Assembly (NCBI GenBank): GCA_003553905.1
Contig: PWEA01000005.1
Location: forward strand, 7,915-71,914
Length of the DNA stretch: 64,000 nt
Source of the DNA: Candidatus Aenigmatarchaeota archaeon
Lineage (GTDB): Archaea > Aenigmatarchaeota > Aenigmatarchaeia > PWEA01
Direction: 5' to 3'
A program made the translations under genes and the position numbers. Below are positions 10,054 to 48,323 of this stretch, one piece after another. The notes below the pieces were generated by a model that was given only the letters and a program-made list of their open reading frames with translations, searched no databases and was not told the origin of the DNA. Numbering within the stretch: the first letter of the stretch is position 1; each line of letters starts with the position of its first letter.

Positions 10054-10059
10054 ATATAC

Positions 10060-10869: not shown

Positions 10870-10872
10870 AGG

Positions 10873-11127: not shown

Positions 11128-11130
11128 ACT

Positions 11131-11739: not shown

Positions 11740-11846
11740 GGTCTACCACAGTATATTTCATGTTCCGATAGTATAAAAATAGGCCTTCGGAAAGTTTTAA
11801 ATAAATACTCGATGAATAATTTTGATACTTAAGGAGGTAGATTTCA

Positions 11847-12035: not shown

Positions 12036-12057
12036 TTAATCGTGGATATTCGTAGGT

Positions 12058-13311: not shown

Positions 13312-13321
13312 AAAAATATTT

Positions 13322-13804: not shown

Positions 13805-13903
13805 TTTAATTACCCCATAGTAATAATTTATAATAAAATATTTATATATCCCACACAGAATTGAAGACTTAAATCCATAGAAAAGGAAATTTTTCTGGGT
13901 AGG

Positions 13904-30033: not shown

Positions 30034-30048
30034 GGGTGAAAAAATACC

Positions 30049-30528: not shown

Positions 30529-30609
30529 AAACTTAGTCTGAATATTTTCAAAAGTGGCAGTACTGGTTGAAGCTTTAAATAAGTAACCTCGAAAGAATAA
30601 AATGGTAAG

Positions 30610-31107: not shown

Positions 31108-31158
31108 TGTAAGCGAAAGGCTTAAAAAGTTTAAGGAGGAAAAGTAAGGTGTGAAAAG

Positions 31159-31653: not shown

Positions 31654-31665
31654 AAGGTGATATAA

Positions 31666-32268
31666 ATGTTTAATATAGCAAATGGTATGACTGCCTTGAT
31701 GGCGCAGACAGGACCAATCGACGAAGTATCACAGATAATCGGGATAGACTTCTTCTCAATGGTGCTTCCATGGCTTCTGACCTTCGCTATAGTATACGGA
31801 GTACTTTCACAGTTAGGTGATGGAGATGGACTACCCGAAAGTGATGCAGCCAGGGCGGTAATCGGAATAGTACTGGCATTTGTAATAGCACCTGTTCTTT
31901 CGCCTTATGTCATACAGCTCGCTGCGCTTTCAACCGGATTCGTAGCCTTGATCGCCGGAGTAATTCTGCTTTCAATATTCGTTCAGATAGCAGGCTTCGA
32001 AGGTGGTGGAGGTGGAAAGAAGTTCTTCGGGAAGTATCCGACATTAACAGGATTCACTGTCTTCGTACTCGCGGTATTGATTTTCATAGGATCAGGTGCA
32101 CATGAAGCCCTTGGTATAACAATCCCAGGATACATATCACAAAACTATCCGCTGTTGTTTTTCCTTGCATTCATGGTTATGATTGTACACTGGATGGTCA
32201 AGGGAGACGAAGACAACAAAAAAAGCGGCGGTAAACCAAAGCAACAAAGACCGAAACAACAGAATTAA
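31666..32268 (+). CDS. Membrane protein, tandem paralog family member
   Basis: LPWLLTFAIVYGVLSQLGDGDGLPESDAARAVIGIVLAFV, plus a Gly run and a basic tail. Confidence 0.55.
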   Translation: MFNIANGMTALMAQTGPIDEVSQIIGIDFFSMVLPWLLTFAIVYGVLSQLGDGDGLPESDAARAVIGIVLAFVIAPVLSPYVIQLAALSTGFVALIAGVILLSIFVQIAGFEGGGGGKKFFGKYPTLTGFTVFVLAVLIFIGSGAHEALGITIPGYISQNYPLLFFLAFMVMIVHWMVKGDEDNKKSGGKPKQQRPKQQN

Positions 32269-33578: not shown

Positions 33579-35861
33579 GTGGTTCAAATGCCATGTGATT
33601 ACGAATACAACCAAAAGGAAAATAAAATAGAAGTAAACTGCTCTGGATGCATCTACGGAAGTAGTGTAGCTGACTACGAGGAGTGTATGGCGAACACAAT
33701 CGATAAAATTCTTGAAGTAAAAGGAGTAGAATCGATTGTATTCAAAAACAGCCGTGAACACGAGTATCCGTATGAGCAGACAAAGCTCCTTGTAGAGATA
33801 GCCCAGGTTCTTAAGGATCTGACCAAAGACAAGGGTCTAAGGAAACTAAAGAAGCTAGATGTACCGGGCTGCAACAAATATTTCCGGGAAAAATATTCGG
33901 AGCTACAGAATATAATCCTCGAAGAACTGAGCAAGGACCCAATAGGTACGTACATACATCTCAAAAGAAAGATAAGGCATCTCAAGATCCAATTAAAGGA
34001 AAATAAGGGTGGTTCACAGAACGAGTGCAGAGAAAAGTACATGAACAAAATACTTATACCAATAAAGGACGAGATCGAGAACACGGGAATGATACAGGGG
34101 GTTAAAAACCAACTTTCCGGATATCGACCAGGCAGGAGAGACGCCTACAGAGAGCTTTTTTACCCTTCTGTACGACCAAACTTCATGCGGACAAAATACA
34201 TGAGACAAGCCCCCGAAGAAGGTAAGAAGGTAGAACATTATGATGTAGGAACTTCTGATGTAGATATATACAGACTGCCTGAAGAAACCAGGCCTCTATA
34301 CCACTTTTCCCCTCCCGAGTTCAAACTCGAGGAGGAAGAATATAAGATACTAGACGAGGCTCAGAGATATATCAGCGAGCATAGACCCGAAACTACCGAG
34401 TTTGCAGAGTCGAAGAGAACCAGGGAAGTTTTCACATCAATATGCAGGGACCTGGTGAAAGACATAGCGGATAATAAGAAAACTGTACTGGAAACCGATC
34501 AGGTCGAAAGACTCACAACCATACTAGGTAGATATACAGGTGGTTTGGGGATACTTGAAGCACTCCTGGAGGACAAAAGAATCCAAGACATATACATAAA
34601 CTCACCAATAGGAAACAAACCGATCTTCGTCAACCACGAAAAATATGGAGAATGCAAAACAAATATAATACCCACCCAAGACGATGCAGAAAGCTGGGCA
34701 ACAAAACTAAGACTTTCGAGTGGAAGACCATTGGACGAAGCCAATCCGGTTCTTGATGCATCCATAGAGGTACCCGGAGGAAGTGCAAGGATAACGGTCA
34801 TAGCTCCCACGCTTTCACCTGAAGGTATTGGTTTTGCTATAAGAAGACACAGAGAAGATCCATGGACATATCCACTGTACTTGAGACCGGATATAAACTA
34901 TATAAATCCACTTTTTGCAGGTCTCATGAGCTTCATAATCGATGGTGGACGTACGTTCCTCGTTGGGGGTGGAAGGGGTTCTGGAAAAACATCACTTCTC
35001 GGAGCCTCGATGCTTGAAATGAAGAGAGACTGGAGGATACTTACAGCAGAGGATACATTAGAGCTACCAGTCGAAAGGCTCAAAAGGCTTGACTACGATG
35101 CACAGAGATTAAAGTCAAGGTCTGTTATAACCCAGGTAGAAACCGAACTTCCTGCGTCGGAAGCAATACGAACGGCCCTTCGTCTGGGTGATTCAGCACT
35201 AGTTATAGGTGAAGTAAGGAGCACGGAAGCAAAGGCCCTCTACGAAGCCATGCGTATAGGAGCGATGGCTAAAACGGTCGCCGGTACTATACATGGTGAA
35301 TCAGCATACGGTCTTTTCGACCGTGTTGTAAACGACCTCGGAGTCCCAAAGACATCTTTCAAAGCTACAGACATCGTAGTTATATGCAACAGGATAAAGA
35401 GCGCATCCGGTCTCGAGGAAATAAGAAGAGTAACAAGTGTTACTGAAGTAAGAAAACACTGGTCCGATGATCCCAGGGCAGAGGATGGATTTGTTCCTCT
35501 TATGAAATATTCGGCAGAAGATGACGAGTTAAAACCGACCGACACTCTACTAAACGGTGAGTCAGAGGTTCTGAATAAGATATCTTCACAGGTCAAGGAC
35601 TGGGCAGGAAGGTGGGATAGGGTCTGGGAAAATATAGAGCTCAGGGCTAAGGTTAAAAAAGCCATAACCGACTATGCACTCGAAACAGGTGAAGAAGATC
35701 TAATGGAAGCCCCGTTTGTTGTCAAGAGCAACAGCAAGTTCCGCCTTATCATGGACGAGGTAAAAAAGAAGACAGGTTACATAGACCCGGATGAAACCTT
35801 CGATAAGTGGGAACAATGGCTCAAGGATCAGATAAAGACTGGTGAATTTAGGAATGTTTAA
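33579..35861 (+). CDS. Type II/IV secretion-system ATPase (FlaI/TadA/PilB/VirB11 family) with extended N-terminal region
   Basis: Walker A GGGRGSGKTSLLGA, Asp box ILTAEDTLEL, GEVRSTEA and a TIHGE His box. 760 aa from the GTG at 33579; the alternative ATG at 33588 would be leaderless. Confidence 0.8.
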   Translation: MVQMPCDYEYNQKENKIEVNCSGCIYGSSVADYEECMANTIDKILEVKGVESIVFKNSREHEYPYEQTKLLVEIAQVLKDLTKDKGLRKLKKLDVPGCNKYFREKYSELQNIILEELSKDPIGTYIHLKRKIRHLKIQLKENKGGSQNECREKYMNKILIPIKDEIENTGMIQGVKNQLSGYRPGRRDAYRELFYPSVRPNFMRTKYMRQAPEEGKKVEHYDVGTSDVDIYRLPEETRPLYHFSPPEFKLEEEEYKILDEAQRYISEHRPETTEFAESKRTREVFTSICRDLVKDIADNKKTVLETDQVERLTTILGRYTGGLGILEALLEDKRIQDIYINSPIGNKPIFVNHEKYGECKTNIIPTQDDAESWATKLRLSSGRPLDEANPVLDASIEVPGGSARITVIAPTLSPEGIGFAIRRHREDPWTYPLYLRPDINYINPLFAGLMSFIIDGGRTFLVGGGRGSGKTSLLGASMLEMKRDWRILTAEDTLELPVERLKRLDYDAQRLKSRSVITQVETELPASEAIRTALRLGDSALVIGEVRSTEAKALYEAMRIGAMAKTVAGTIHGESAYGLFDRVVNDLGVPKTSFKATDIVVICNRIKSASGLEEIRRVTSVTEVRKHWSDDPRAEDGFVPLMKYSAEDDELKPTDTLLNGESEVLNKISSQVKDWAGRWDRVWENIELRAKVKKAITDYALETGEEDLMEAPFVVKSNSKFRLIMDEVKKKTGYIDPDETFDKWEQWLKDQIKTGEFRNV

Positions 35862-37938
35862 GGGCGATAAGGATGACCGCAAAGAAGAGATAAAAAGACT
35901 TCTGGAAAGAAGAAACGAAGGACTCCGGATGCCCGAAAGCAGAAAAAGAACATTCACATCGAGGGAGTACGAAACATTCTTAAAAGAGGAACAGAAGCAG
36001 AGGAAACTATCACTTTACGAAAAACTATGTAATATTGCCGAAAATATAATAGTCGTAGAGCCGTCCGATGAAAAGAGGGAGGAGATGGAACGGTCAATAG
36101 ATATGACCTACATGAATATAACCCCTGAGGGGGCCTACTCTCTAGCCATTCTGTCCGGTATCGGCATCTTTGTCACTGCGATATTACTTATGGTACTGGG
36201 TCTTGCCTCGATAATATTTGGTCTCCTCATGTTTATACTGGGTGGTGTATCAATATACCTCCTCGCAGAATATCCAAATTCGGAGGCCAGGCTTTTCCGG
36301 GTCAAAGCTGCCGATCAGATTATGCTTGCTGTGATATACATGGTCATATACATGCGTACTTCTCCTAACCTCGAAGGTGCAGTTAAATTCACCGCCAAGC
36401 ATCTAGGAGAGCCCCTTTCACTTGATTTCAAAAAACTGCTCTGGGATGTAGAAACCCGAAACTATGTTTCGATGAGGGAAGCCCTTTCCGCCTACCTGGA
36501 AAAGTGGGAAGACAACAAAACCTTCGTGGAAGCTATACAGATAATAGAAGACTCGATGCAACAAGCCGGAGAAAAAAGAAAAAGAATGCTCAACGAAGCA
36601 ATAAACACGATGATGACAGGCTCAAGAGAGATGATGAAAAACTACTCAAACAAACTCGAACTTCCTATACTCGTAATACACGCCCTCGGTATAATGCTTC
36701 CTATCATGGTTCTGATAATGTTCCCTATAATAATGCTTATGCTTGAAGAAACTATCCGGCCTGCGTTTCTCATTCTGGGCTACAATGTTATACTACCGCT
36801 CATAATATATCTAACAGGAAAAAGAACGCTGGAGTACAGGCCGATGGGATTTTCTGAGCCTGACATATCAAAACATCCGGACCACATTCCCTCTGGAATG
36901 ATAAACATCGCAGGTAAGGAGATAAAGATATGGCCTATATCTGTTCTTCTGTCGGTTCCTGTGATAATTACCGGTATCTATCTGGTTAACTTCTACGCAG
37001 GTACAGATATATCAACTCAGCTCTACACGTCAATAATCATAACCATCGGAATAGCACTGGGTCCTTCGAGCTACTTCTACCTCGACTCCAGCGCTAAGCT
37101 CAAGATAAGGAAGGAGGTGAAGGATATCGAGGATGAATTTTCGGAGTCTCTTTTCTCACTGGGTAATATACTCAAGCTGGGTAAGCCAATGGAGAGGGCC
37201 ATGGAAGAAGCTGCTGTAAAAAATAAGGATATGGACATATCGAAGATGTTCGATATAGTCGTAAACAATATCAAAAAGGGTGGGATGAACATCAGGAAGG
37301 CTTTTTTCGATGATGAATACGGTGCAGTGTGGCATTATCCTTCGACACTCATAATATCCGTCATGAAAATCGTCATAGATGCGACAAAAAAGGGTTCCGA
37401 TATTGTCTCTAGGTCAACTATATCAATATCAAAGTATCTACAACAGCTCGATGAGATAGAAGAAGACCTGAAAAATATGCTCTCTTCGGAGACTACTTCT
37501 ATGCAGTTCCTGGGAACGTTTCTTGGACCCTTTGTGGCAGGTGTTTCTGTGGCCATGGCTGCTATAATGATATCAATATTCCAAGGTGTGGGTGGTTCAT
37601 TGGATGCACTGGCAGGAACCGGAACCTCACCCGGTGTTGGAGGTCTAGGTGGGATGGGACTCAATGAAGGCCTAGTAGGTGGATGGGGTTCAGCAGAAAA
37701 TATGATACCCATATCATGGATACAGGTTGTCGTAGGTCTCTATGCTATCCAGACATCCTACCTTCTTTCTATGCTAACATCCGGCATAGAAAACGGTCCC
37801 GGTGACCAAATAAAGAAAAGACAGTCCGCAGCAATTATGATAATGATAGGTGTAATAGTCTACGGTGTTTCAATTGCTGTGGTTTGGCAAATATTCGGAG
37901 GGCAGATATCTGAACTTCTAGCAGCAACCATAAACTGA
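35842..37938 (+). CDS. FlaJ/TadC-like polytopic membrane platform protein
   Basis: 698 aa. Cytoplasmic helical domains alternate with clusters of TM helices, the two-T2SS_F-domain layout. Overlaps the ATPase by 20 nt, suggesting translational coupling. Confidence 0.7.
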   Translation: MNLGMFKGDKDDRKEEIKRLLERRNEGLRMPESRKRTFTSREYETFLKEEQKQRKLSLYEKLCNIAENIIVVEPSDEKREEMERSIDMTYMNITPEGAYSLAILSGIGIFVTAILLMVLGLASIIFGLLMFILGGVSIYLLAEYPNSEARLFRVKAADQIMLAVIYMVIYMRTSPNLEGAVKFTAKHLGEPLSLDFKKLLWDVETRNYVSMREALSAYLEKWEDNKTFVEAIQIIEDSMQQAGEKRKRMLNEAINTMMTGSREMMKNYSNKLELPILVIHALGIMLPIMVLIMFPIIMLMLEETIRPAFLILGYNVILPLIIYLTGKRTLEYRPMGFSEPDISKHPDHIPSGMINIAGKEIKIWPISVLLSVPVIITGIYLVNFYAGTDISTQLYTSIIITIGIALGPSSYFYLDSSAKLKIRKEVKDIEDEFSESLFSLGNILKLGKPMERAMEEAAVKNKDMDISKMFDIVVNNIKKGGMNIRKAFFDDEYGAVWHYPSTLIISVMKIVIDATKKGSDIVSRSTISISKYLQQLDEIEEDLKNMLSSETTSMQFLGTFLGPFVAGVSVAMAAIMISIFQGVGGSLDALAGTGTSPGVGGLGGMGLNEGLVGGWGSAENMIPISWIQVVVGLYAIQTSYLLSMLTSGIENGPGDQIKKRQSAAIMIMIGVIVYGVSIAVVWQIFGGQISELLAATIN

Positions 37939-37987: not shown

Positions 37988-39286
37988 ATGAAGCCGCTCA
38001 ACGACCAGATAGGAGCTTCAACTCTTATCATGATAATAGCCGGGGTAATAATAATACTCATAGCGGGCAGCTTTGCAACAGTACTGATGAGTCGTATTGC
38101 CCAAGACGTACTTGGACAAAGTGTCATGTGTGATACTTTTTGTTCGATGCAGTCTACTGTTAAAGAAGTGACAACACTGGATATGATACCAAGCCCCGGA
38201 CTTACCGGTACACTTGGTTATATTGCCATAGGGGCTGTAATAGGTTCGGTGGTACCGGGAATAGGAACCGCGATAGGAGCAGCGATAGGAGCAATTGTTG
38301 GAGTTGCTATAGCCGCAGTACAACATTTTGCAAGCTGGCTGGGAAGAGATGATGAAGATGTTGCAAGAGATCTGGCAATAGACTACTTGGTTCGCCCCGA
38401 AGGCATGGGTTGTTACTGTGGCGTGTCCAATGCCAGAGGAAAGTATATACACTTTCTGACACCCGGTCCTAGCTCAACCAGGCCACATGTGGCCGAGTTC
38501 CATCTAACAGACCAAACTCCGGAAAAACATCTCCAAGAAGAGATAATAGATACAGATGGAAACACTATATTCAAACACGGTGGTTATGGCCAAAAAAGTA
38601 ACTGTGAAGATGAACTTAGTAAAATAGATGAACTTGACAACGGTGAATACTTAGTCGAACTCGATATATATCCAGGGTGCATAATACTATCAACGACCGA
38701 TGACAACTGTGCAATATGGGCATTCAATGAAACCTTTGCAATAACCAATGAAGAAGGAAAGTCCATAAGGGAACAGGCTGAAGAACAGGATAAAATAATA
38801 TTCGCTAGCACGATAAGGTCCGATGACCCCGTAAACAGCCTGGGTATCGCAGAAGAGATAGAGGCAAGTGGCAGACACGAGTCCCAGAGGATGCTCCTCG
38901 AGCATTACGAAGAAGGTATACACCCATTCCAAGTTCACGTCCCTGTAGTTTGTAAATCTGAAGAAAGAACTGAAAGGCGTGTCCAGGATCCACTTGACAG
39001 GGCATGTAGAGAACAGTGCCATGACGGAAACGCACTTCTATGGGCTTCTAGGTGTTTCGAAGAACCAGAAGATGCCGGGGAAACCTACTATTCACTGGAA
39101 GAAGATTTTCTTCCAGAAGAATATGATGACACCAGAGACTTATGCCCTATGGAAGACGAAGACAACGGAGATGAAGACGGGGGGGAAGATGAAAACAACA
39201 ACGAAGATCGCGGTTATCCCTTCTGTCTCTGTAACACTCCTCGAAGTTATTCATGGGAACTGGACGAAGAATACGCAGAAATATAA
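37988..39286 (+). CDS. Pilin-like protein with Cys-rich acidic extracellular domain (family 1, paralog A)
   Basis: N-terminal hydrophobic helix. Motifs shared with family-1 paralogs: C.TFCSMQ, GMGCYCGV, YIHF, HLTDQTP, DGNTIF, SQRMLL, VVCKS, CREQC, LCP, PFCLC, SWELDEEY. An extra Gly-zipper hydrophobic segment (GAVIGSVVPGIGTAIGAAIGAIVGVAIAAV) is unique to this copy. Confidence 0.65.
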   Translation: MKPLNDQIGASTLIMIIAGVIIILIAGSFATVLMSRIAQDVLGQSVMCDTFCSMQSTVKEVTTLDMIPSPGLTGTLGYIAIGAVIGSVVPGIGTAIGAAIGAIVGVAIAAVQHFASWLGRDDEDVARDLAIDYLVRPEGMGCYCGVSNARGKYIHFLTPGPSSTRPHVAEFHLTDQTPEKHLQEEIIDTDGNTIFKHGGYGQKSNCEDELSKIDELDNGEYLVELDIYPGCIILSTTDDNCAIWAFNETFAITNEEGKSIREQAEEQDKIIFASTIRSDDPVNSLGIAEEIEASGRHESQRMLLEHYEEGIHPFQVHVPVVCKSEERTERRVQDPLDRACREQCHDGNALLWASRCFEEPEDAGETYYSLEEDFLPEEYDDTRDLCPMEDEDNGDEDGGEDENNNEDRGYPFCLCNTPRSYSWELDEEYAEI

Positions 39287-39307
39287 TATCTTGAATTTGT
39301 GATGTAA

Positions 39308-40408
39308 ATGATTGACGAAAAAGGTGGTTCCTTATTACTCATAATAGTTGTAGGTATAATATTATCCCTGATCGTTGGTTCTTTGATGACCGGTGCATTT
39401 AGTGTGGTGGTGAGAACCGTAATCGGAACCGACCTGTCGTGTCCTACATTCTGTGCAGTTCAAGCAGACATAGAGGAGTATAGCATGGCAGATATAATGC
39501 TACCATCGATTCTACCATTCATAGAGGAAAGCTCTGAGGCAACGGCTCATAAAATAGCAGACTGGATAATACAACCGGAAGGGCTTGGCTGTTACTGCGG
39601 CGTCAAAGCAAGAAGTGGAAGATACATCCACTTCCATACAGGTTCACCTGGAGAAAGGTACATAAGAGAGCTTCACTTGACGGACCAAGATCCACATATA
39701 CATCTAGACTATCATGTCAGTGATTCCGATGGAAACACGTTGTTCGACCACAGCTTCGACAAGAGCAGCTGTGAGGAAGACATAAGTAACATAGAAGAAG
39801 TACAGTACTATCAAACCGTTGGCTGTGTAATCGTGGTTAACTCCGAGGGAGGGTACTGCTCTATACATGTAATAGGAGAAGGTTCAGTTATAGAAAACAA
39901 CATAGGTGAAAGCATACACGATCAGGTTGAAATAAAGGAAACATTGACGACAAACTATGAAGACAACGATCCCATTTCATTTTTTAAAATCGGCGACAGA
40001 TACAGCGTACCTCGATTTGCATACGGGACAGGAGATGTCCTGACCTACACGATAGGAACCCAGCCCTACCAGCACGATTCCCAACGAATGCTCCTCCGGG
40101 ACTACGACGAATACCTAGGAGCTAAGTTCGCTCTCTATGCTCCTGTTGTCTGTAGGGCATCAACAAGAGAAGGACAAGATACTCAGACAGAACTCGATGA
40201 AAAATGTAGAAAGCAATGTAAGGAAGACGATAAGATTTTCTTCTCTTCTGCATGCCAAGATATCCCCAGGGAAGGTTATGACATGCTACGTGACGAATAC
40301 CGCGAAGACACTCTCTGTGAAAAGGATGACGAGGGCCCATACTGCAGATGTGTGCACGAGAAACGATACTACTGGGAGGTAGACGAAGATTATTCGAGAG
40401 AAGAATGA
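39308..40408 (+). CDS. Class III signal-peptide (type IV pilin-like) protein with Cys-rich domain (family 1, paralog B)
   Basis: MIDEKG then GSLLLIIVVGIILSLIVGSL. Shared motifs SCPTFCAVQADIEEYS, GLGCYCGV, YIHF, HLTDQDP, DGNTLF, SQRMLL, VVCRAS, CRKQC, LCEK, PYCRC, YYWEVDEDY. Confidence 0.7.
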   Translation: MIDEKGGSLLLIIVVGIILSLIVGSLMTGAFSVVVRTVIGTDLSCPTFCAVQADIEEYSMADIMLPSILPFIEESSEATAHKIADWIIQPEGLGCYCGVKARSGRYIHFHTGSPGERYIRELHLTDQDPHIHLDYHVSDSDGNTLFDHSFDKSSCEEDISNIEEVQYYQTVGCVIVVNSEGGYCSIHVIGEGSVIENNIGESIHDQVEIKETLTTNYEDNDPISFFKIGDRYSVPRFAYGTGDVLTYTIGTQPYQHDSQRMLLRDYDEYLGAKFALYAPVVCRASTREGQDTQTELDEKCRKQCKEDDKIFFSSACQDIPREGYDMLRDEYREDTLCEKDDEGPYCRCVHEKRYYWEVDEDYSREE

Positions 40409-40447
40409 AAAAGTTAAAAACTAAACGAAAACCTATTAAATGATAAT

Positions 40448-40561
40448 ATGGAAGTAAGTATGTCTGTCTTGCTCTGGGTGATTGTAGCCTTTGCTCTGTT
40501 TGTATTTGTAGTAATATTTACCGGTATGTTTTTCGCCGACACGTTTGGAATTTTAATATAA
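40448..40561 (+). CDS. Possible 37-aa hydrophobic micro-protein
   Basis: MEVSMSVLLWVIVAFALFVFVVIFTGMFFADTFGILI is a single TM helix lying between two pilin genes, below the ORF-track cut-off. Confidence 0.2.
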   Translation: MEVSMSVLLWVIVAFALFVFVVIFTGMFFADTFGILI

Positions 40562-40572
40562 TCAAGGATACT

Positions 40573-41850
40573 ATGATCGATCAAAAGGGAGCATCAGTAA
40601 AGGCACTCTTCGTAATCATAATTGTAATGGTGGGTGCATGGGTTTTAATACAAAGTATTGGTCCTATAACCAAAGCTGCCATGGGAACCGAAGTATCCTG
40701 TCCGCTTTTCTGTGATATACAGTCAGGTATAGAAGACTACTCGAGATGGGCATGGTGGCCGGGGTGGCTTGGAGGAAGTGTAAGCTGGTCCGATATATTC
40801 AAAAATGAACTAAGAAGAAACATGGTAGCACCTAAATCAATGGGATGTTACTGTGGTGTACAGGAAGAAAGAGGAAAGTTTATCCATTTCCAGGGGAGTA
40901 CCAGTAGTATACGCGAATTCCACATGACGAATCAGGATCCATTGGTACATCTTAGCCTTGAGGCCGGTCCATTTGACCACAGGCCTACTTCATCGCAAAT
41001 TCGTAATATGTGTCGATCCATCATAGAAGATTACGGAGAAGAGTTCAGTCCACCTGTATACGATCAAAGCGATCTCAATAGAGTTCAAGCATGCATGATT
41101 GTTTCAGAATCACCGGGTTGTGCAATATGGAGATTTGAAGAGGGTTTTGTCATTAGGAGAGACTCTGATGATTCTATATGGGAACAGGCACAGGAACAGG
41201 GAAAAGACATAGGCTTTTTTTCCTTTAATAGAGACGAAGACCCTGTTTCGGATCTAAGCATAGGTGAAACTGTGTATGTATCGGGATCAAAGGACCCCTC
41301 CCAACGGATGTTACTCCAAAAATACGAAAGCGGCGATCAAGATTTCAATCTCTCTGCATCCGTGGTATGTAAAAGTGTTAGAATGGATGAATCTATGCCC
41401 ACAAACGAACTAGACAGGGCTTGCAACGAATACTGCTCGGATGAAAATCTTTTCTTCATGAATTCTAACTGCCTAGAGGAGAGGAGAGGTGGTTATGATA
41501 TCCTTCCAGAAGAATACATAGAAAATGGGAGGGATAAACTCTGCCCTGAAGGAAGAGAACTTCCCTTCTGTCTCTGTGCAGGAGAAAAGGACTACTACTG
41601 GGAAACATACTGGGAAGATTTCTACACAGTAACGGTAGAAACCCAAGGTAGTGGAAATGTGGACATAAGCCCCGACCTGGACGAGTATCACGAAGATCAG
41701 GAAGTATCATTGGAAGCAGAAGCGTACAACGATTGGGAATTTAGCCATTGGGAAGGAGATCATCCACATGGACAAAAAGAAGATGCAGAGATAACGATCA
41801 CGGTAGATGGAGATATGGAAGTAACTGCAGTATTCGAATCGACATCATAG
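40573..41850 (+). CDS. Class III signal-peptide protein with Cys-rich domain (family 1, paralog C) and C-terminal InlB B-repeat-like domain
   Basis: MIDQKG then ASVKALFVIIIVMVGAWVLI. Shared motifs SCPLFCDIQSGIEDYS, MGCYCGV, FIHF, HMTNQDP, SQRMLL, VVCKS, CNEYC, LCPEG, PFCLC, YYWE. C-terminus YTVTVETQGSGNVDISPDLDEYHEDQEVSLEAEAYNDWEFSHWEGD..ITITVDGDMEVTAVFE fits the divergent InlB B-repeat pattern. Confidence 0.7.
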   Translation: MIDQKGASVKALFVIIIVMVGAWVLIQSIGPITKAAMGTEVSCPLFCDIQSGIEDYSRWAWWPGWLGGSVSWSDIFKNELRRNMVAPKSMGCYCGVQEERGKFIHFQGSTSSIREFHMTNQDPLVHLSLEAGPFDHRPTSSQIRNMCRSIIEDYGEEFSPPVYDQSDLNRVQACMIVSESPGCAIWRFEEGFVIRRDSDDSIWEQAQEQGKDIGFFSFNRDEDPVSDLSIGETVYVSGSKDPSQRMLLQKYESGDQDFNLSASVVCKSVRMDESMPTNELDRACNEYCSDENLFFMNSNCLEERRGGYDILPEEYIENGRDKLCPEGRELPFCLCAGEKDYYWETYWEDFYTVTVETQGSGNVDISPDLDEYHEDQEVSLEAEAYNDWEFSHWEGDHPHGQKEDAEITITVDGDMEVTAVFESTS

Positions 41851-41910: not shown

Positions 41911-42093
41911 ATGAATACGGATTCAAAAAGCCTCTTTTCCAGAGGTGAAATAAGTATACAGGCCCTGGTAGTGATAATTCTAATGTTGATAGGGATCATA
42001 ATCATTGTTATAATATCATCGGGCGTCGGTGACTTTGGAGGAGATGCGTCTTCGACTATAATGGAATATTTAGCAGATGCTATAGGTGCATAA
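41911..42093 (+). CDS. Short pilin-like protein (60 aa)
   Basis: SLFSRG then EISIQALVVIILMLIGIIIIVI. Almost entirely the signal/helix segment, so a candidate structural pilin. Confidence 0.5.
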   Translation: MNTDSKSLFSRGEISIQALVVIILMLIGIIIIVIISSGVGDFGGDASSTIMEYLADAIGA

Positions 42094-42097
42094 AGTT

Positions 42098-42250
42098 ATG
42101 GTACATAATAAAAAGGGGTTCATAAGTTTCGCTATGATTGTGATCATAGTTCTTATAGCTCTAACGGTCGGTATTCTGCTTATACACACCTTTTGGGGAG
42201 GCGGTGAAGGATTGTTAAACCTACTCATCCAAAGGCTTCAACAGGTATAG
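42098..42250 (+). CDS. Short class III signal-peptide pilin (50 aa, not in ORF track)
   Basis: MVHNKKG then FISFAMIVIIVLIALTVGILLIHTFWGGGEGLLNLLIQRLQQV. Textbook archaeal prepilin N-terminus. ATG at 42098, TAG at 42248..42250. Confidence 0.5.
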   Translation: MVHNKKGFISFAMIVIIVLIALTVGILLIHTFWGGGEGLLNLLIQRLQQV

Positions 42251-42259
42251 GTATAAAAT

Positions 42260-42406
42260 ATGTCTACATTTAGCGACACATTAACTGTTTTCGAAAACAA
42301 TACAAAGATAATATTTGCCTTAGTGGTGTTTGCTCTGCTTATAGGCATACTTTACTACACGATAGGTCCTATAATAGATACATTACTGGGGGCTATAGGT
42401 TATTGA
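42260..42406 (+). CDS. Small membrane protein (48 aa, not in ORF track)
   Basis: MSTFSDTLTVFENNTKIIFALVVFALLIGILYYTIGPIIDTLLGAIGY. Single TM helix, no KG cleavage motif. Confidence 0.35.
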   Translation: MSTFSDTLTVFENNTKIIFALVVFALLIGILYYTIGPIIDTLLGAIGY

Positions 42407-42407
42407 T

Positions 42408-43124
42408 ATGAACGTAATCAACAAAAAAGGTTCAAGATCACAGAGTGAGTTCATATTTCTTGCAATAAAGGCAGTGATAGGTATCTTGGTTATAGGAATT
42501 GTTGCCTTGAGTGTTAGGGGCATGGAAACAGGCTGCAGTACACATGACGAAAATCCAACGGCATGTATAAGAAATACCGAATGCAGGCCTGCAGTTAGAA
42601 GAAAGAGAAACATATTCACGTTCTATATTGATCCTGCTCGTACCATAGACCTAATCTACCATACAAAAATAACCGGTGATATAGAATGCCGAGACGCGAT
42701 AAGGACTCCTAACAACAGATACCACGCCGCAGAGGATGCTCAGTGTGTATGTCCTGTTGGATGGGAAGTAATTTTAGACAAGGATGATCAGTACTACGGA
42801 GTCTGCAGACTACCAGGAACTAACGACTATCACCCATGCGAGTATCCACCAGACGGCGAACAGCAAGAAGCAGAATTCAAAGACATGTGTGAAGATGGAG
42901 ACAGATACCACGGAGAAGTCTGGATCGACGGAACAGATGAGGAAGCTCCAAATATGTGCTGCGATGATGGAGATACAAAGGAATGTGACTCCGATAACAT
43001 AGACGAAGAATGTGGCGATTTGGTTTGTATTGAAATAGAGGTCGAGGACGAAGACGGAGAAGAGGAAGAAACCACTTTCTGGATAGAAGAAGAAAGCGTA
43101 CCTGATATAGAATACTTCCTTTAA
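42408..43124 (+). CDS. Class III signal-peptide protein with Cys-rich acidic domain (family 2, paralog A)
   Basis: MNVINKKG then SRSQSEFIFLAIKAVIGILVIGIVAL. Shared with the next gene: ETGCSTHDENPTACIRNTECRPAV, GDIECRDAIRTPNNRYHAAEDAQCVCPVGWE, YYGVC, YHGEVWIDG..MCCDDGDTKECD. Confidence 0.7.
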   Translation: MNVINKKGSRSQSEFIFLAIKAVIGILVIGIVALSVRGMETGCSTHDENPTACIRNTECRPAVRRKRNIFTFYIDPARTIDLIYHTKITGDIECRDAIRTPNNRYHAAEDAQCVCPVGWEVILDKDDQYYGVCRLPGTNDYHPCEYPPDGEQQEAEFKDMCEDGDRYHGEVWIDGTDEEAPNMCCDDGDTKECDSDNIDEECGDLVCIEIEVEDEDGEEEETTFWIEEESVPDIEYFL

Positions 43125-43151
43125 AATACACAAAATAAAAGATGAAGCGGA

Positions 43152-43802
43152 ATGTTTTCAAAAAAAGGTACTGCTAAATCGCAGGAAGAAACACTTTGGT
43201 TTATAATCAAGATAGCTATAATGTTGATAGGAATGGTAGTTTTGATTGTTTCTTTACTCGAGATGGAGGCAGGCTGCAGTAGACACGATGAAAATCCATC
43301 GGCATGTGTAAGCGATGAAAACTGCAGACCCGCAGTTAAAACATTTGACCTAGGATGGGGTTTATATGGTTTCTCTCAAATCGAAGTAGTGGGTGAGATC
43401 GAATGCCGGGAATCTGTGAGAAAACCCAATACAAGATATCATGCAGCCCAAGATGGAAAATGCGTATGCCCTGGTTTCTGGAACGAAATCATGGACAGGG
43501 ACCATGACTACTTTGGTGTGTGTTATACTGAATATGACGGAGAAGAAATGTACTATCCATGCCAGTACGGCCTGGATGTTCAGGCTGAGGAAATAAAAGA
43601 CAGATGCGATACCGACAACGGTCTTAGAATGCACGGAGAAGTATGGGGCTCCGGTTGGAATGTTCCAGATAGATGCTGCGACGATGGTGAAGTAAAGAAA
43701 TGTGGGATAGATAAAAGAGGTGAAACTTGTGCAGACCATACCTGTAAATCCGGTCCAGCAATGCATGATGTTGTTATAGTCAACTACTATTGGCAGCCAT
43801 AA
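43152..43802 (+). CDS. Class III signal-peptide protein with Cys-rich domain (family 2, paralog B)
   Basis: MFSKKG then TAKSQEETLWFIIKIAIMLIGMVVLIV. EAGCSRHDENPSACVSDENCRPAV, GEIECRESVRKPNTRYHAAQDGKCVCPGFWNE, YFGVC, MHGEVWGSG..RCCDDGEVKKCG. Confidence 0.7.
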   Translation: MFSKKGTAKSQEETLWFIIKIAIMLIGMVVLIVSLLEMEAGCSRHDENPSACVSDENCRPAVKTFDLGWGLYGFSQIEVVGEIECRESVRKPNTRYHAAQDGKCVCPGFWNEIMDRDHDYFGVCYTEYDGEEMYYPCQYGLDVQAEEIKDRCDTDNGLRMHGEVWGSGWNVPDRCCDDGEVKKCGIDKRGETCADHTCKSGPAMHDVVIVNYYWQP

Positions 43803-43847: not shown

Positions 43848-44270
43848 TTGTATATGATGAACACCCCAGCAAAGGGCATAGGCGTAGGAAAGTCTCTTAT
43901 GTTAATATTGATACTGGTAGTACTCATATTTACAACGGTCGTAATAGGTGACATCTTTACATCTGTTCTTGGTATGGGTATAGGAGATGAGTTCCACCTC
44001 ACAATGGGTGAGTTGTCTGTATCCTACACTACATCTAGCTCTTTTCAGGAAAAAACAGAAATAGAAGAAAATCTTCCGATGGCCTGCGAAAGAGTTGTAT
44101 TTAGAAACAACACACTAAAGGCTTATCTAGAACATGATGAATTCTACTTCGTTTCCTACACTACACAGGAAATGGATGAAGATTTCGAGGTAGAATGTGA
44201 TTCCTTTGGTGGGGTGAAGTTTATTGACGGGAGGATTGAAGCCTCTAGCCCGGTTGATGGAACATTGTGA
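43848..44270 (+). CDS. Class III signal-peptide (pilin-like) protein
   Basis: MNTPAKG then IGVGKSLMLILILVVLIFTTVVIG. 140 aa. Confidence 0.6.
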   Translation: MYMMNTPAKGIGVGKSLMLILILVVLIFTTVVIGDIFTSVLGMGIGDEFHLTMGELSVSYTTSSSFQEKTEIEENLPMACERVVFRNNTLKAYLEHDEFYFVSYTTQEMDEDFEVECDSFGGVKFIDGRIEASSPVDGTL

Positions 44271-45169
44271 TTATGATGACAAGGATAGATAACAAAGGAA
44301 CAACCGGAGGAGACTATATATGGTATATACTATTTGTGATAGTAACAATAACCTATCTATATGCCTTTTACGCAATATTCATGGCCGGTTCAACAGTAGA
44401 TGTTGAGGGAATTGAAAGAACTCAAGGAAGACTACAGGGTTCTGCTGCTTATACAAGATTGTTATCATATCCCAACTTCGTCTCGACGGGAGAGATCGGT
44501 GTATTCGATAAATCATCTCTCGATTCGAAGAACGGTACAGAGAAGCTAGAGGAACTCTACAACCCATCACTCTGGATTTATATTGAGATAGAAAACACCG
44601 AAAATGATGATAAGTATATATTCGGTACACCAGGACCAAAGAAGGCAACCGAAGAATGGATAGCTGAGGACGGGTATATGAGTACCTGGGACGATGAAGA
44701 TGAAATGAGCTTTTGGGATCATATGTCCGCCAAATATAGTACAATGGTAAACATAGACACCGGCGACGGCTTCGATCTAGCTAAACTACATTTTTACTTC
44801 CGACAAATACCCGATCCTGTATTGAGCCTGAAAAGGGGTGCCCATATAGCCAAGGAGGAAGGAAGCCATACAGTCACATTGTTTCACCCAACGTCAGGCT
44901 GTAAAATTTATGCACAAGATAGATATGGGAGAGCTCAGTGTTTCGTCCGCGAAGATCCTTTTGTAATAGATACAAGTCAATCTGATAAAATAAAGGACGA
45001 CTTCGGTGAATACATGCATCTGAAAGGCATAGAACTGAAGGCATTCGACGATGATGAGGAAGAGTTCGAGATAGACCCGCCCGGTAGGTTTACAGAAGGA
45101 AAGACGAGGTTAGAACTAGCCCACACCGGCGGCAAAACGGTAGAGTATGAAATAGTCGATAGTTGGTAA
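44267..45169 (+). CDS. Class III signal-peptide (pilin-like) protein
   Basis: MTRIDNKG then TTGGDYIWYILFVIVTITYLYAFYAIFMAG. 300-aa acidic globular domain. 4-nt overlap with the upstream gene. Confidence 0.6.
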   Translation: MIMMTRIDNKGTTGGDYIWYILFVIVTITYLYAFYAIFMAGSTVDVEGIERTQGRLQGSAAYTRLLSYPNFVSTGEIGVFDKSSLDSKNGTEKLEELYNPSLWIYIEIENTENDDKYIFGTPGPKKATEEWIAEDGYMSTWDDEDEMSFWDHMSAKYSTMVNIDTGDGFDLAKLHFYFRQIPDPVLSLKRGAHIAKEEGSHTVTLFHPTSGCKIYAQDRYGRAQCFVREDPFVIDTSQSDKIKDDFGEYMHLKGIELKAFDDDEEEFEIDPPGRFTEGKTRLELAHTGGKTVEYEIVDSW

Positions 45170-45170
45170 A

Positions 45171-45701
45171 ATGAAAAAAAGAATCGGTAAAAAGGGTGGC
45201 TTTATGATCTTGCTAGCTACGCTTATATTCACCGCCGTGTTCTTAATTACTTTGTTTATAGTCGGTCCCTTCGTTGGAGGAGCACAGATGGAAATAGAGG
45301 TAATGTCAGAAGACCCTGCCAGATTCAGTATAGAGAAAAATACGCTTCTAAGAACCAATGAAACAAAAAGAAAACTCATGGCTTTCGGAGAAGGAGACGG
45401 GTCGGTAGACGAATCTATCGCCAAGACAAGCGACAAATTTGGAGAAGCTGATTCGGGCTCTCATATACTGCTTTTCCAGTTCGAAGGGGACGATGACATA
45501 GAAAGGGTGGGTTTCCTTTGTTTAGACGACTGCGGGCATATAAGTGGATATGATGAAGAGTTTAAAGCAATTCTACAAAATTCAAAAGTAATAGCACCTA
45601 GACCCATAATGCTCCCGGAAGGTGGAATGGGATCCTCATATTCGATCTATTATGATCCAGATGAAGTCGCATCAGATATTATGGACGGTGTGATGTACTG
45701 A
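45171..45701 (+). CDS. Class III signal-peptide (pilin-like) protein
   Basis: MKKRIGKKG then GFMILLATLIFTAVFLITLFIVG. 176 aa. Confidence 0.6.
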   Translation: MKKRIGKKGGFMILLATLIFTAVFLITLFIVGPFVGGAQMEIEVMSEDPARFSIEKNTLLRTNETKRKLMAFGEGDGSVDESIAKTSDKFGEADSGSHILLFQFEGDDDIERVGFLCLDDCGHISGYDEEFKAILQNSKVIAPRPIMLPEGGMGSSYSIYYDPDEVASDIMDGVMY

Positions 45702-45708
45702 TGATAAA

Positions 45709-46272
45709 ATGTTAGGAGATAAAGGAATAAAGGTTACGATTGTGGTCTTAGCAGCCGTACTGATAGCCATCTCTCTGGCAACTACAGTAATTGTAGGAGT
45801 ACTATCATACCAAGGTCAGGAGCAGTCCTGGTTCGGGCAGAGTGAAAGAGTTACAGCAAAGGTTCAGTTTGACCATGCTCTGGAAGCTATAGAAGATTCG
45901 TTTTTGTTAGGTATATACTGGGGTATACGGGAATCAGGTAGCGACTGGGAAGACGCAAGTGAATCCCTTGAAGAAGAAATAGAGGAGAAAATAGATGATT
46001 ATCTGACTAAGTTAGAGGGTTTCTACAGAGGCGAATACGATACGCAACCGTTCCGACTCGAAACGATGATACAGATAAATGACGTCGATATAGAAGTAGA
46101 TTTGGATGAGGACGAGGAAACCATAGATAGGGTAGAATTATCAGGTAATCTGACTTCTTACAGGAACCAGCCCTCGATAACAATATCCGATGATTTCTAC
46201 TTCAGTGAAAACTTTAACGAAGACTATTCAGACCTCTATGACATGGCTCGTAATCCATTAGAAAATATGTAA
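45709..46272 (+). CDS. Class III signal-peptide (pilin-like) protein
   Basis: MLGDKG then IKVTIVVLAAVLIAISLATTVIVGV. 187 aa, acidic. Confidence 0.6.
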   Translation: MLGDKGIKVTIVVLAAVLIAISLATTVIVGVLSYQGQEQSWFGQSERVTAKVQFDHALEAIEDSFLLGIYWGIRESGSDWEDASESLEEEIEEKIDDYLTKLEGFYRGEYDTQPFRLETMIQINDVDIEVDLDEDEETIDRVELSGNLTSYRNQPSITISDDFYFSENFNEDYSDLYDMARNPLENM

Positions 46273-46301
46273 ATTTTATAAGAAAGGGGGAGATATTTAA
46301 C

Positions 46302-47288
46302 ATGAAGATGAATCAAAAGGGATCCAAGTCTATGATGGCTTTAGTAGTTCTTATAATTCTAGGTGTTTTGGTAATATTTGTTTTTTCCACAACATCGGGA
46401 TCTTTTTTGGAGATTTCAGAAGGTCTTATGGACATAGGCGAGGAGGAGGCAAGAAGGGTTCATAGGAAGTTCAAATACCCTATTTTAAAACACGAGCTCC
46501 CGGAAGAAGAATTTCCCGGAGAGGGGTCAGGACGGATTGTGACCTCATGTAAATCAATAGGTTCAGAAGGTGAATATCAGCTCCAAGACTCTATAAGATG
46601 TTCAGATCACGAACCAATCCGAGAGTTCAGCGGGACGCTGGACGGTCGTGGTCACAGTATATATGGTTTAGATGAGCCACTATTTGAAACGATATCTTCC
46701 TCGGGAACCGTAAAAAATATTAGAATCTCGGAAGTAGATATATTTGAGGAAGGTCCTGCAGGTGGTCTTTCTGTAGAAAACCAAGGAACCATCAAAAGAA
46801 TCCGTATTTCCGGGATGGTTCAAGGCGAAAGTAACGTTGGCGGTCTTGTTGGAACAAACAGTGGAGAGATACGGAAATCTTCCTCCACGGCAAATGTAGA
46901 TGGAGATCAAAATGTAGGAGTACTGGTAGGACAACATACCTCCGGTTCCGTAACAAATTCTTACACGGTCGGCTCTGTAGAAGGTATATCAAATGTAGGG
47001 GGACTAATAGGATCAGGAAGTGGACAGGTAGATAAAACATACGCAGCTAGTTTTGTAACCGGACTCACAAACAAACAAGGCTTGGTCGGTTCCGGTTCTG
47101 CTGGGGCAGTGACAAACTCCTTCTGGAGTACTGACACATCCGGAATTCTTCCTGGAGATATCTCTGGAAGTGTTATAGGAACACCGAAAGTTGACGAAGC
47201 CATGGAAGACAAGGCAACATTTGTTTCCACAAGAACGGAAGGCCTCGTAGATCCCTGGGACTTCGATGAAATATGGACTATGGGATAA
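46302..47288 (+). CDS. Class III signal-peptide protein with GLUG-like repeat domain
   Basis: MKMNQKG then SKSMMALVVLIILGVLVIFVF. Central repeats NVGGLVGTNSGEI..NVGVLVGQHTSGSVTNSYTVGSVEGISNVGGLIGSGSGQV..GLVGSGSAGAVTNSFW fit the GLUG motif (GGLVG.N.G.I.NSYATG.V.G). Confidence 0.65.
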   Translation: MKMNQKGSKSMMALVVLIILGVLVIFVFSTTSGSFLEISEGLMDIGEEEARRVHRKFKYPILKHELPEEEFPGEGSGRIVTSCKSIGSEGEYQLQDSIRCSDHEPIREFSGTLDGRGHSIYGLDEPLFETISSSGTVKNIRISEVDIFEEGPAGGLSVENQGTIKRIRISGMVQGESNVGGLVGTNSGEIRKSSSTANVDGDQNVGVLVGQHTSGSVTNSYTVGSVEGISNVGGLIGSGSGQVDKTYAASFVTGLTNKQGLVGSGSAGAVTNSFWSTDTSGILPGDISGSVIGTPKVDEAMEDKATFVSTRTEGLVDPWDFDEIWTMG

Positions 47289-47290
47289 AA

Positions 47291-47452
47291 ATGAACTACG
47301 CTCTTCGAACCAGAGGACTACAGTTTAATATCCTTGTTTATATAATACTTGGAATACTTTTGATAGGTGTGATTGCTGCTCTTGCCCTGACTACAGAGGG
47401 GCTCTTCGAAGGATTTTTTGACCTAATGAAAGAACTGATACTTTCAGGGTGA
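47291..47452 (+). CDS. Short class III signal-peptide pilin (53 aa, not in ORF track)
   Basis: MNYALRTRG then LQFNILVYIILGILLIGVIAALAL. ATG 47291, TGA 47450..47452. Confidence 0.45.
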   Translation: MNYALRTRGLQFNILVYIILGILLIGVIAALALTTEGLFEGFFDLMKELILSG

Positions 47453-47497
47453 GGACAGACCGTAAGTTTTAAATCCAATAGGTAACAACCTTTAACC

Positions 47498-47755
47498 ATG
47501 AAAATCAAGTCCGGGAAGAGATTAAAGCCTCTACATCTCGGAGCTCTGGTTTTGAGTTTGATAGTGATCCTATCCATCATAGTTTTTAGTCTGGACGTAA
47601 CAGAAGGACCAGGTGAGGAAGATGAGATGGGCAGGTCTTGTGTAGGATACCTACAGAGGAATTGTTGCAGTAACCCCGGAGCAGTTCGATGCCAAGAATT
47701 CGAAAACGAAATATGGACACACCAAGAAGATCCATTTGATGTATGTTGTGAATAA
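47498..47755 (+). CDS. Small TM-anchored Cys-rich protein (family 3)
   Basis: N-terminal helix LHLGALVLSLIVILSIIVF, then SCVGYLQRNCCSNPGAVRCQEFE..DVCCE, a C..CC..C..CC pattern shared with the next gene. Confidence 0.5.
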   Translation: MKIKSGKRLKPLHLGALVLSLIVILSIIVFSLDVTEGPGEEDEMGRSCVGYLQRNCCSNPGAVRCQEFENEIWTHQEDPFDVCCE

Positions 47756-47758
47756 ACT

Positions 47759-48070
47759 ATGTTAAGTAAAAAGGGTATGGACGCGATAAGAATAATAAGG
47801 GTATTTATAATAACATTACTCATTCTCTTTGCTCTTCTTGCCCTCTGGGTAGGCACAGGAGATGCAGGTCTAACGGAAATAGAGTTCGATGGAAAGATGA
47901 GGATAGCCTGTAATAGATTTGAAAACAGGGGTTGTTGTAGAAGCTACGACGAAGAAGATCCCGGACAGTGTGCTGTAGATAAGGTATGGGAAGGCTACGA
48001 CGAAGAAGAAATGGACGAAGAGCTTATAGAAAGGCTGGAAGAAGTCGATTGGGAACAAAGGTGTTGTTGA
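47759..48070 (+). CDS. Class III signal-peptide Cys-rich small protein (family 3)
   Basis: MLSKKG then MDAIRIIRVFIITLLILFALLAL. IACNRFENRGCCRSYDEEDPGQCAVD..EQRCC. Confidence 0.55.
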   Translation: MLSKKGMDAIRIIRVFIITLLILFALLALWVGTGDAGLTEIEFDGKMRIACNRFENRGCCRSYDEEDPGQCAVDKVWEGYDEEEMDEELIERLEEVDWEQRCC

Positions 48071-48071
48071 A

Positions 48072-48323
48072 ATGAAAGAAAAGGGTATATCGCTTGCGAT
48101 AAGGACCGTTGTAATCTTGATTATCTCTATACTCATACTACTTGCAGTTATCACCATGTTTACAGATGTATGGGATGTAAGTCCCTTTGAAGACACTAAA
48201 GGAAATATTTCCGAGGAATACGGACCGGATTGGGGTAATGGGGAAGAAAATGGCCAAGAAAGTTACAATACCTTTTCTTTAAGCAGTCTATCCGAAACCA
48301 CACATTCACTGTCTAGTCTTTAA
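48072..48323 (+). CDS. Class III signal-peptide (pilin-like) protein
   Basis: MKEKG then ISLAIRTVVILIISILILLAVITMF. 83 aa, S-rich tail. Confidence 0.55.
   Translation: MKEKGISLAIRTVVILIISILILLAVITMFTDVWDVSPFEDTKGNISEEYGPDWGNGEENGQESYNTFSLSSLSETTHSLSSL

Follow-up and report, generated by a model that had tools for sequence, protein, structure and literature searches.

The locus described here raises the question of what two small, cysteine-rich proteins contribute to an operon that is headed by the components of a pilus-like machine. It lies within a stretch of 64,000 nucleotides (hereafter "the window") from contig PWEA01000005.1 (positions 7,915 to 71,914 of the forward strand; assembly GCA_003553905.1) of a Candidatus Aenigmatarchaeota archaeon. 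The two genes, F2a and F2b, make up family 2 (F2) of the cysteine-rich proteins of the operon, with three upstream paralogs constituting family 1. On balance, F2a and F2b appear to encode minor, prepilin-like subunits of a type IV filament of the DPANN kind, with heads that would be stapled by disulfide bonds.

F2a (42408..43124, plus strand) encodes a protein of 238 amino acids (aa) and F2b (43152..43802, plus strand) one of 216 aa, with a spacing of 27 nt between them. The positions of these two open reading frames (ORFs) are exactly those given in the original prediction. Each protein begins with a short basic leader that ends in Lys-Gly and is followed by a long hydrophobic helix, as expected from the KKG class III-type starts that had been assigned to the pair. 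The leader of F2a runs from M1 to G8 (MNVINKKG), its linker is SRSQSE and the helix extends to approximately residue 36. For F2b, the leader spans M1 to G6 (MFSKKG), the linker is TAKSQEE and the helix is predicted at residues 8-37. The N-termini read MNVINKKG/SRSQSEFIFLAIKAVIGILVIGIVAL and MFSKKG/TAKSQEETLWFIIKIAIMLIGMVVL, respectively, where the slash marks the putative cleavage site.

The two proteins are firmly identified by their sequences as paralogs, with a match that is far above chance. BLASTP aligns them with 93 of 212 residues identical (44%, E 4e-54), which bears out the paralogy that had been proposed, and the motifs quoted in its support are all present. The first of these is ETGCSTHDENPTACIRNTECRPAV in F2a and EAGCSRHDENPSACVSDENCRPAV in F2b, and the second is GDIECRDAIRTPNNRYHAAEDAQCVCP and GEIECRESVRKPNTRYHAAQDGKCVCP. 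The shorter ones are YYGVC and YFGVC, YHGEVW and MHGEVW, and CCDDGDTKECD and CCDDGEVKKCG. There are 14 cysteines in each protein, aligned one to one, and the ectodomains have a cysteine content of 7.0-7.8%, compared with 1.25% for the ORFs of the window outside the operon. Acidic residues outnumber basic ones in both proteins: F2a has 56 Asp and Glu against 21 Lys and Arg, with an acidic C-terminal tail, and F2b has 37 against 22. The strongly acidic character of the proteins would fit a salt-in halophile. A count of N-glycosylation sequons (N-x-S/T) gave zero for F2a and zero for F2b, which is unusual among exposed archaeal surface proteins.

A near-identical copy of the region is held by JAKOPE010000024, a contig of a metagenome-assembled genome (MAG). 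Orthologs occur in PWHK01000020 and in a contig from the ENA, with a protein identity of 86% for F2a (locus L006) and 75-76% for F2b (loci L006 and L004). The ratio of nonsynonymous to synonymous substitution (dN/dS; NG86), calculated for the window against L006, is 0.14 for F2a and 0.18 for F2b. With all 19 products of the operon as queries, tblastn recovers the whole set of genes, identically ordered, in four distinct lineages of genomes, namely the window with L005, L006 with L004, L001 (= L007) with L002, and L008 (= L014) with L013. F2a and F2b can be regarded as real genes because they have orthologs, because their dN/dS is low and because the pair holds the same operon position in the four lineages. 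The related MAGs are labelled by NCBI as "Candidatus Aenigmatarchaeota archaeon", isolates T1Sed10_*, and their habitat is soda-lake sediment (PMC6146748).

The heads of the two proteins had been described as disulfide-rich domains on pilin stalks. A cysteine-rich head bound to a pilin-type leader is indeed found, and it consists of two separable modules with eight and six cysteines. The N-module of F2a extends from C43 to C144 (42534..42839, plus strand; alignments A1 and A2) and contains eight cysteines in the pattern GC..HDENP.AC....CRP ... C..A.R.PN.RY.AA.D..C.CP..W....D..YYG.C ... C.Y. The C-module, from C161 to C207 (42888..43028, plus strand), contains six in the pattern C...HGEVW...CCDDG..K.C......C....C. 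The corresponding modules of F2b run from C42 to C137 (43275..43562, plus strand; eight cysteines) and from C152 to C198 (43605..43745, plus strand; six cysteines).

In alignment A2, which comprises 15 sequences, the family begins with an xKG leader, continues with a polar linker in which a Ser and a Glu are conserved, and then enters a hydrophobic helix with a mostly conserved Lys. In the leader, K5 is nearly invariant, and 13 of the 15 rows have G6. C42, C52, C58, C85, C106 and C124 of the N-module are invariant and C104 is nearly so. Among its other residues, R90 and G122 are invariant, and P49, P60, P92, D101 and D115 are nearly invariant. The C-module of the longer members follows the pattern C..HGEVW..CCDDG..K.C......C....C.

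The separability of the modules is apparent from four representatives of 123-134 aa with eight cysteines, which end just past the eighth cysteine and are single-module short forms. Truncation at contig ends was considered as an explanation and ruled out, given that the gene for P0007 is complete and lies midway along a contig of 222 kb. At locus L018 there is a tandem pair of such short forms. At L009 (contig JBKHEG010000001) the F2 gene is a single short form, and the F2 C-module is found instead at the C-terminus of another protein of the operon, the ortholog of p300 (7875-8852). The first 186 residues of this ortholog match the p300 of the window (E 2e-31), a protein with an xKG leader encoded at 44267..45169 on the plus strand. 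Its last 55 residues match residues 161-215 of F2b with 34% identity (BLASTP, E 1e-5; hmmsearch also matches), with four cysteines and a terminal YW in register. The C-module of F2b is homologous to this C-terminus. From the alignments, a domain has been shuffled between two proteins of the operon, both of them leader-bearing, which argues that they work in one assembly.

The cysteine count is even in 16 of 16 family members (8, 12, 14 or 16). In P0005 the equivalents of both C184 and C198 are lost together, which predicts a bond between these two residues. The even counts and the paired loss are the grounds on which the claim of a disulfide-rich head gains support, as a reading of the sequences. 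A different use of the conserved cysteines would be the binding of metal, in Zn(Cys)4 or Fe-S-like sites, so that the head would be metal-stabilised or redox-active and suited to a reducing, sulfidic sediment. The surroundings of the cysteines lend this some appeal, with CxC and CC motifs beside Asp and His (GC.RHD, C.CP and CCDDG), and eight cysteines could give two Zn(Cys)4 sites. The habitat is probably reducing. F2b also has a weak likeness to the Zn-binding C-terminus of DYW_deaminase (Pfam E 0.02; 15.1 bits against a cut-off of 24). However, this match is confined to one member and was rejected, and the His that it aligns (RYH) is Asn or Asp in most of the family. His45, His97 and His161 are conserved among the closest relatives but vary across the family. 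Furthermore, the cysteines are gained and lost in twos and not in fours, the six of the C-module do not fit Cys4 sites, and the location is extracellular. Metal binding is thus judged distinctly improbable, and the indirect evidence of parity and paired loss favours a predicted set of four disulfides in the N-module and three in the C-module.

The structure of F2b was modelled with AlphaFold2 (AF2). The predicted local distance difference test score (pLDDT) was 45 with five sequences and rose to 69.7 with 15, with a predicted template modelling score (pTM) of 0.46. The model has a helix at residues 8-37 and two short helices, together with one long hairpin (58-87) and several shorter ones, so that it is mostly beta after the first helix. 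The N-module is the best-predicted part: over 10-residue blocks, the mean is 76-90 at residues 81-140 and 84-85 at residues 41-60, and it drops in the variable stretch (61 for residues 61-70 and 47 for residues 71-80). With moderate confidence, the model suggests a long N-terminal helix followed by a beta-rich domain, as in type IV pilins.

The family has no match in Pfam, in NCBIfam, in the PDB or among known folds. Neither Pfam nor NCBIfam gives anything consistent for F2a, F2b or all 15 members, and the PDB returned 0 matches, whether it was searched with one sequence or with a profile. No solute-binding-protein (bindosome-type) or other Pfam domain is found in any member. An EGF-like identity was also considered and rejected, as the matches to EGF_Tme5 (E 0.024) and EGF_Teneurin (E 0.58) are below threshold and each is limited to one member. 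A Foldseek search against BFVD gave a best E of 0.049, and no match with E < 0.01 is found in either the PDB or BFVD.

The operon provides the setting in which a function can be proposed. It comprises 19 genes, headed by a FlaI/TadA-like ATPase and then a TadB/C-like platform protein, and runs to 48323. ORFs were scored by a leader rule that requires x(K/R/Q/E/D/N)G among the first 22 residues and a hydrophobic run after it. Of the 13 non-overlapping operon ORFs that follow the platform gene, 12 satisfy this rule, compared with 7 of 79 ORFs elsewhere in the window; at least three of these seven also look like real pilin-like proteins.

In the proposed mechanism, the short basic leader would stay in the cytoplasm as each preprotein inserts into the membrane, and a prepilin peptidase encoded elsewhere would cut after the Gly (G8 of F2a and G6 of F2b). 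The operon context suggests that the remaining hydrophobic helix of approximately 30 residues would then be the handle by which the ATPase and the platform protein lift the subunit into a filament. The exposed part would be a small, very acidic, beta-rich head, in which the alignment distinguishes two independent modules. These are most likely locked by four and three disulfides, respectively, as cysteine parity and paired loss suggest. The bonds would keep such small domains folded in a brine of high salt and high pH.

Several observations weigh against this mechanism. The polar segment after the putative cleavage site (SRSQSE or TAKSQEE) is atypical for pilin cores, with 6-7 polar residues preceding the hydrophobic run, and so is the conserved Lys in the helix. 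Curated models of pilin N-termini (PF07790 Pilin_N, PF04021 Class_IIIsignal and those of NCBIfam) match none of the 15 members at E <= 1. No prepilin peptidase (peptidase A24) is encoded in the 64-kb window; the polytopic ORFs that were checked are a rhomboid, a SpoIIM-like protein and unannotated small membrane proteins. The AF2 model is moderate (pTM 0.46), and Foldseek finds no pilin-like head for it in the PDB, where the best E is 0.25 and the TM-score is at most 0.16. In addition, soda-lake sediment is probably reducing, which is awkward beside seven exposed disulfides.

Some of these points would be accommodated if F2a and F2b were uncleaved bitopic membrane proteins (type II, N-in/C-out). 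They would then be PilN/PilO-type machinery or coat components, or non-polymerising surface proteins with a class III signal peptide (SPIII), and would not be filament subunits. The polar and charged segment after the Gly, the Lys in the helix, the lack of a match to pilin N-terminal models and the lack of a peptidase in the window all agree with this. In a recent preprint (10.64898/2026.04.22.720090), many archaeal SPIII proteins are reported to be non-pilin binding proteins that functionalise type IV filament machines. On the other hand, the Lys-Gly lies at a fixed short distance from Met1 throughout the family and in about a dozen other proteins of the operon. This spacing is the hallmark of a prepilin peptidase substrate, and a simple signal anchor needs none. 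There is also no substrate-binding-protein domain in the family. The uncleaved arrangement is accordingly considered unlikely, though it carries real weight, and cleaved, prepilin-like subunits are the preferred reading.

If F2a and F2b do enter a filament, they would not make up its bulk but would be "minor" subunits, present in few copies within a heteromeric complex for priming or for the tip. This is proposed because a dozen or more leader proteins are kept one to one across genomes, with F2 in a fixed slot after three tiny transmembrane (TM) proteins. Alternatively, one of the two could be the major filament subunit, with the pair acting as alternative or co-polymerising major pilins. The leader and helix are those of a filament subunit, and major pilin genes are commonly tandem-duplicated in archaea (PMC4858521). 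Such a role is nevertheless very improbable. Archaeal major pilins are usually heavily glycosylated, and the F2 proteins have no N-glycosylation sequons. Smaller and simpler candidates with classic KKG/FISF-type leaders are encoded upstream (42086-42250 and others). Some genomes carry a single short form of F2, and F2 is absent from similar operons of related lineages, in which unrelated cysteine-rich proteins fill the slot.

The distribution of F2 also speaks to its position as an occupant of a conserved slot. A word-indexed search found three F2 clusters, and an exhaustive HMMER profile search of 1.84 billion representatives gave 14 matches at E <= 1e-3, of which 13 are true. The remaining one, P0014, is a repeat protein of 1650 aa that was rejected as spurious, as only a short, low-information stretch of the "YYRVCAY" kind matches. 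With the C-module alone as the query, zero matches were found in a set of 5.8 billion proteins. The deposited names of the family members are "hypothetical protein", and every member for which the context was fetched sits in the same kind of operon. The F2 family is thus very narrow. A lack of any homologs elsewhere had been named as something that would refute the original prediction; homologs do exist, confined to a narrow clade.

The platform protein, in contrast, has 836 homologs at E <= 1e-10 across DPANN, with identities of 43-87% in genomes labelled Aenigmatarchaeota and approximately 32-35% in those labelled Woesearchaeota or Nanoarchaeota. Two more distant operons, with platform identities of 57% and 44%, keep the same plan of an ATPase, a platform protein, tiny TM ORFs and many xKG proteins. 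They encode cysteine-rich proteins with 8, 10, 18, 20 and 52 cysteines, and the F2 profile matches none of these. At L019, the protein in the F2 slot has 125 aa and 10 cysteines in a different framework. The xKG-leader proteins of L020 (contig JAGGZI010000040), a distant Aenigmatarchaeota operon built on this plan, include one of 781 aa with 52 cysteines (11337-13682) and one of 552 aa with 20 cysteines (9636-11294). Cysteine-rich, leader-bearing proteins seem to be a general trait of this type of DPANN operon. Because the platform protein has so many DPANN homologs while the distant operons hold other cysteine-rich proteins in place of F2, the machine is regarded as old and widespread in DPANN and F2 as a lineage-specific occupant of a conserved slot.

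A tandem pair at 60 kb of the window illustrates another pilin-like design. Its members, of 108 and 111 aa, are encoded on the minus strand (60017-60343 and 60398-60733), have eight cysteines each and are 54% identical (E 3e-41). Their leaders read ...DKG/ISLPINMLVILAVAVIVLLA and ...KKG/VTLPINMLVILAVAVIVLLA, and their likeness to F2 is limited to the leader and the helix. The operon of L020 ends (13693-14320) with proteins that have similar KKG/MSIPINTIIILAVGLIVLL N-termini. Elsewhere in the window, far from the operon, a 228-aa ORF at 8297-8983 (plus strand) has a textbook start of the class III type (MKKG/ISTSVLLAVIAATLLLAG), has no cysteine and matches nothing in Pfam or NCBIfam; from its sequence, it may be a stand-alone pilin candidate.

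The remaining genes of the operon lie on either side of F2. The ATPase (33579..35861, plus strand; 760 aa) is a FlaI/TadA-like secretion or type IV filament ATPase that matches the Pfam T2SSE model (1e-15). It matches the NCBIfam models for FlaI (2e-40) and TadA (1e-32), both under the curated equivalog cut-offs. At its N-terminus (33579-33700, plus strand) there is a cluster of four cysteines (C6, C21, C24 and C36; C-x14-CxxC-x11-C). This resembles the variable cysteine-rich N-terminal domains of some archaeal secretion ATPases (Makarova et al. 2016). The platform protein (35842..37938, plus strand) is a polytopic, TadB/C/FlaJ-like protein of 698 aa with approximately seven TM segments. PF00482 T2SSF is present in its orthologs, two of which bear the name "Flp pilus assembly protein TadB" in the annotation of the Joint Genome Institute (JGI).

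Next in order are the three family-1 paralogs (37988..41850, plus strand) of 432, 366 and 425 aa, with 14 cysteines each and xKG/xIG leaders. The last, F1c (40573-41850, plus strand), has at its C-terminal end an InlB B-repeat domain of divergent sequence (Flg_new_2, E 7e-9). Family 2 had been described as unrelated to family 1, and a comparison of their alignments agrees: when A2 is compared with A3 by hhalign, only 14 columns align, where the helix ends, with a probability of 42%. At the level of sequence profiles, homology between the ectodomains of the two families is undetectable.

Three tiny TM ORFs lie between the family-1 trio and F2a. The last of these, s48 (42260..42406, plus strand), is a conserved single-TM ORF of 48 aa whose stop codon ends one base before the start of F2a. 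The genes are therefore tightly packed in the operon, and translation of s48 and F2a is probably coupled. At most related loci an s48-type gene, of 48 aa in most cases, lies directly 5' of the first F2 gene. The exceptions are L015/L016 and L017, where the preceding ORF encodes 53-54 aa, and L018, where a 48-aa ORF lies approximately 150 nt upstream.

The rest of the operon (43848..48323, plus strand) encodes more proteins with xKG leaders, and comprises p140, p300, p176, p187, a GLUG-repeat protein, two proteins with six cysteines and small TM ORFs. The repeat protein (46302-47288, plus strand; 328 aa) has GLUG / Peptidase_M26_N-type repeats. Two adjacent six-cysteine proteins with CC pairs, of 85 and 103 aa, are encoded at 47498-47755 and 47759-48070 (plus strand). 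This pair looks like a third cysteine-rich family of the operon; it has counterparts in L001 and L006, and the 103-aa protein (c103) also has them in the distant L019 and L020.

Upstream of the operon, at 29479-32268 (plus strand), five small membrane proteins of 159-200 aa are encoded in tandem, the last four of which scored approximately five TM segments. Three of these four share LPWLL..A.V(F/Y)G.L, and the four that were scanned had no Pfam match. Two coiled-coil genes on the minus strand separate this array from the pilus operon. In L019 a similar run of seven genes, encoding 143-188 aa, occupies the same position.

The duplication that gave rise to F2a and F2b is older than the split between the lineages of the window and L006. 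For the pairs in L001 and L008, reciprocal E-values favour orthology of first copy with first copy and of second copy with second copy. On the other hand, the F2a of the window resembles F2b (44%) more than it does the copies in L001 (39-41%), and it also groups with F2b in an unbootstrapped neighbor-joining tree of the N-module. A search for tracts of recent gene conversion found no long stretch of near-identical DNA, the best being 78% over 79 nt.

It may be asked what the heads would do at the cell surface. The GLUG/M26_N and InlB B-repeats in the neighbouring proteins are repeat types that are typical of bacterial surface adhesins. Speculating from this context, the fast-evolving and shuffled heads would help to make contact with a surface; as the genome of this archaeon is reduced, the most plausible one is that of its host cell. 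That they serve in adhesion or host contact is a guess, made because of the adhesin-type repeats nearby, the fast turnover of the heads and the host-dependent lifestyle that is assumed for DPANN. A bolder version holds that the dozen-plus leader proteins of the operon, among them the F2 pair, the family-1 trio and p300, do not build an ordinary pilus but form a heteromeric contact apparatus of fixed stoichiometry, peculiar to this DPANN lineage. The small, disulfide-locked F2 modules would be interchangeable host-recognition cassettes within it, shuffled between carriers and replaced wholesale between lineages. This version is quite improbable; if it is true, F2 would help to determine the range of hosts.

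Physical contact with a host is a necessity for DPANN archaea, few of the proteins that make it are known, and published surveys of their genomes often find no annotated pilins (PMC9563170). A conserved slot that holds small, cysteine-rich, leader-bearing proteins supplies concrete candidates. If the heads are adhesive or host-specific, they would offer handles for predicting host range from metagenomes and could be used as pull-down targets in enrichment cultures. A further consequence would be that mini-domains stapled by disulfides outside the cell are not confined to hyperthermophiles. If the role of the heads is only that of structural minor pilins, F2 would be an ordinary protein family that had previously gone unannotated.

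In several respects F2 belongs to a known kind. Archaeal type IV pilus (T4P) loci carry sets of predicted minor pilins, and cysteine-rich components have been described in them (Makarova, Koonin & Albers 2016, PMC4858521). Among these, the Epd minor pilins of Methanococcus maripaludis (MMP0233, MMP0236 and MMP0237) provide a parallel: they are various class III-leader proteins encoded beside ATPase and platform genes, differ from the major pilin, are needed in few copies, and have heads that are mutually unrelated (PMC4858521). F2 shares no sequence or profile similarity with them. It is a DPANN family, and its heads are tiny, cysteine-rich and modular.

Cysteine-rich filaments have also been reported. 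In the T4P of Thermoproteales subclade 4E, nearly all components have multiple conserved cysteines and disulfides are expected (PMC4858521), and bonded cysteines are present in a pilin of Pyrobaculum arsenaticum (10.64898/2026.04.22.720090). These organisms are hyperthermophilic Thermoproteota, in which the disulfides are read as a thermal adaptation. The F2 proteins, by contrast, come from a moderate-GC, soda-lake-related lineage with an acidic proteome; no homology to the Thermoproteales or Pyrobaculum proteins was detected, and the F2 heads are built of two shuffled mini-modules. In size (approximately 50-100 residues), even cysteine number and predicted richness in beta-hairpins, the modules are also like EGF-like and knottin-like modules. 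F2 is not a member of these, as it has isolated sub-threshold Pfam matches and no Foldseek match.

The logic of a tip complex is best known from bacteria. In type II secretion (GspH-I-J-K) and in type IVa pili (PilV-W-X with PilY1), several different prepilin-like proteins encoded in a single operon assemble into a complex that primes the filament or forms its tip, and this complex can carry an adhesin. The analogy with F2 is one of logic only and not of homology, as the bacterial proteins have G/FTLIE-type leaders and larger alpha-beta heads. No description of cysteine-rich pilin-like proteins in DPANN was found in the literature. Set against these systems, three things are new: a sequence family with a predicted fold that has no database match; the two-module build, with one module that, from the alignments, appears to move between subunits; and the occurrence in a DPANN lineage related to soda-lake MAGs.

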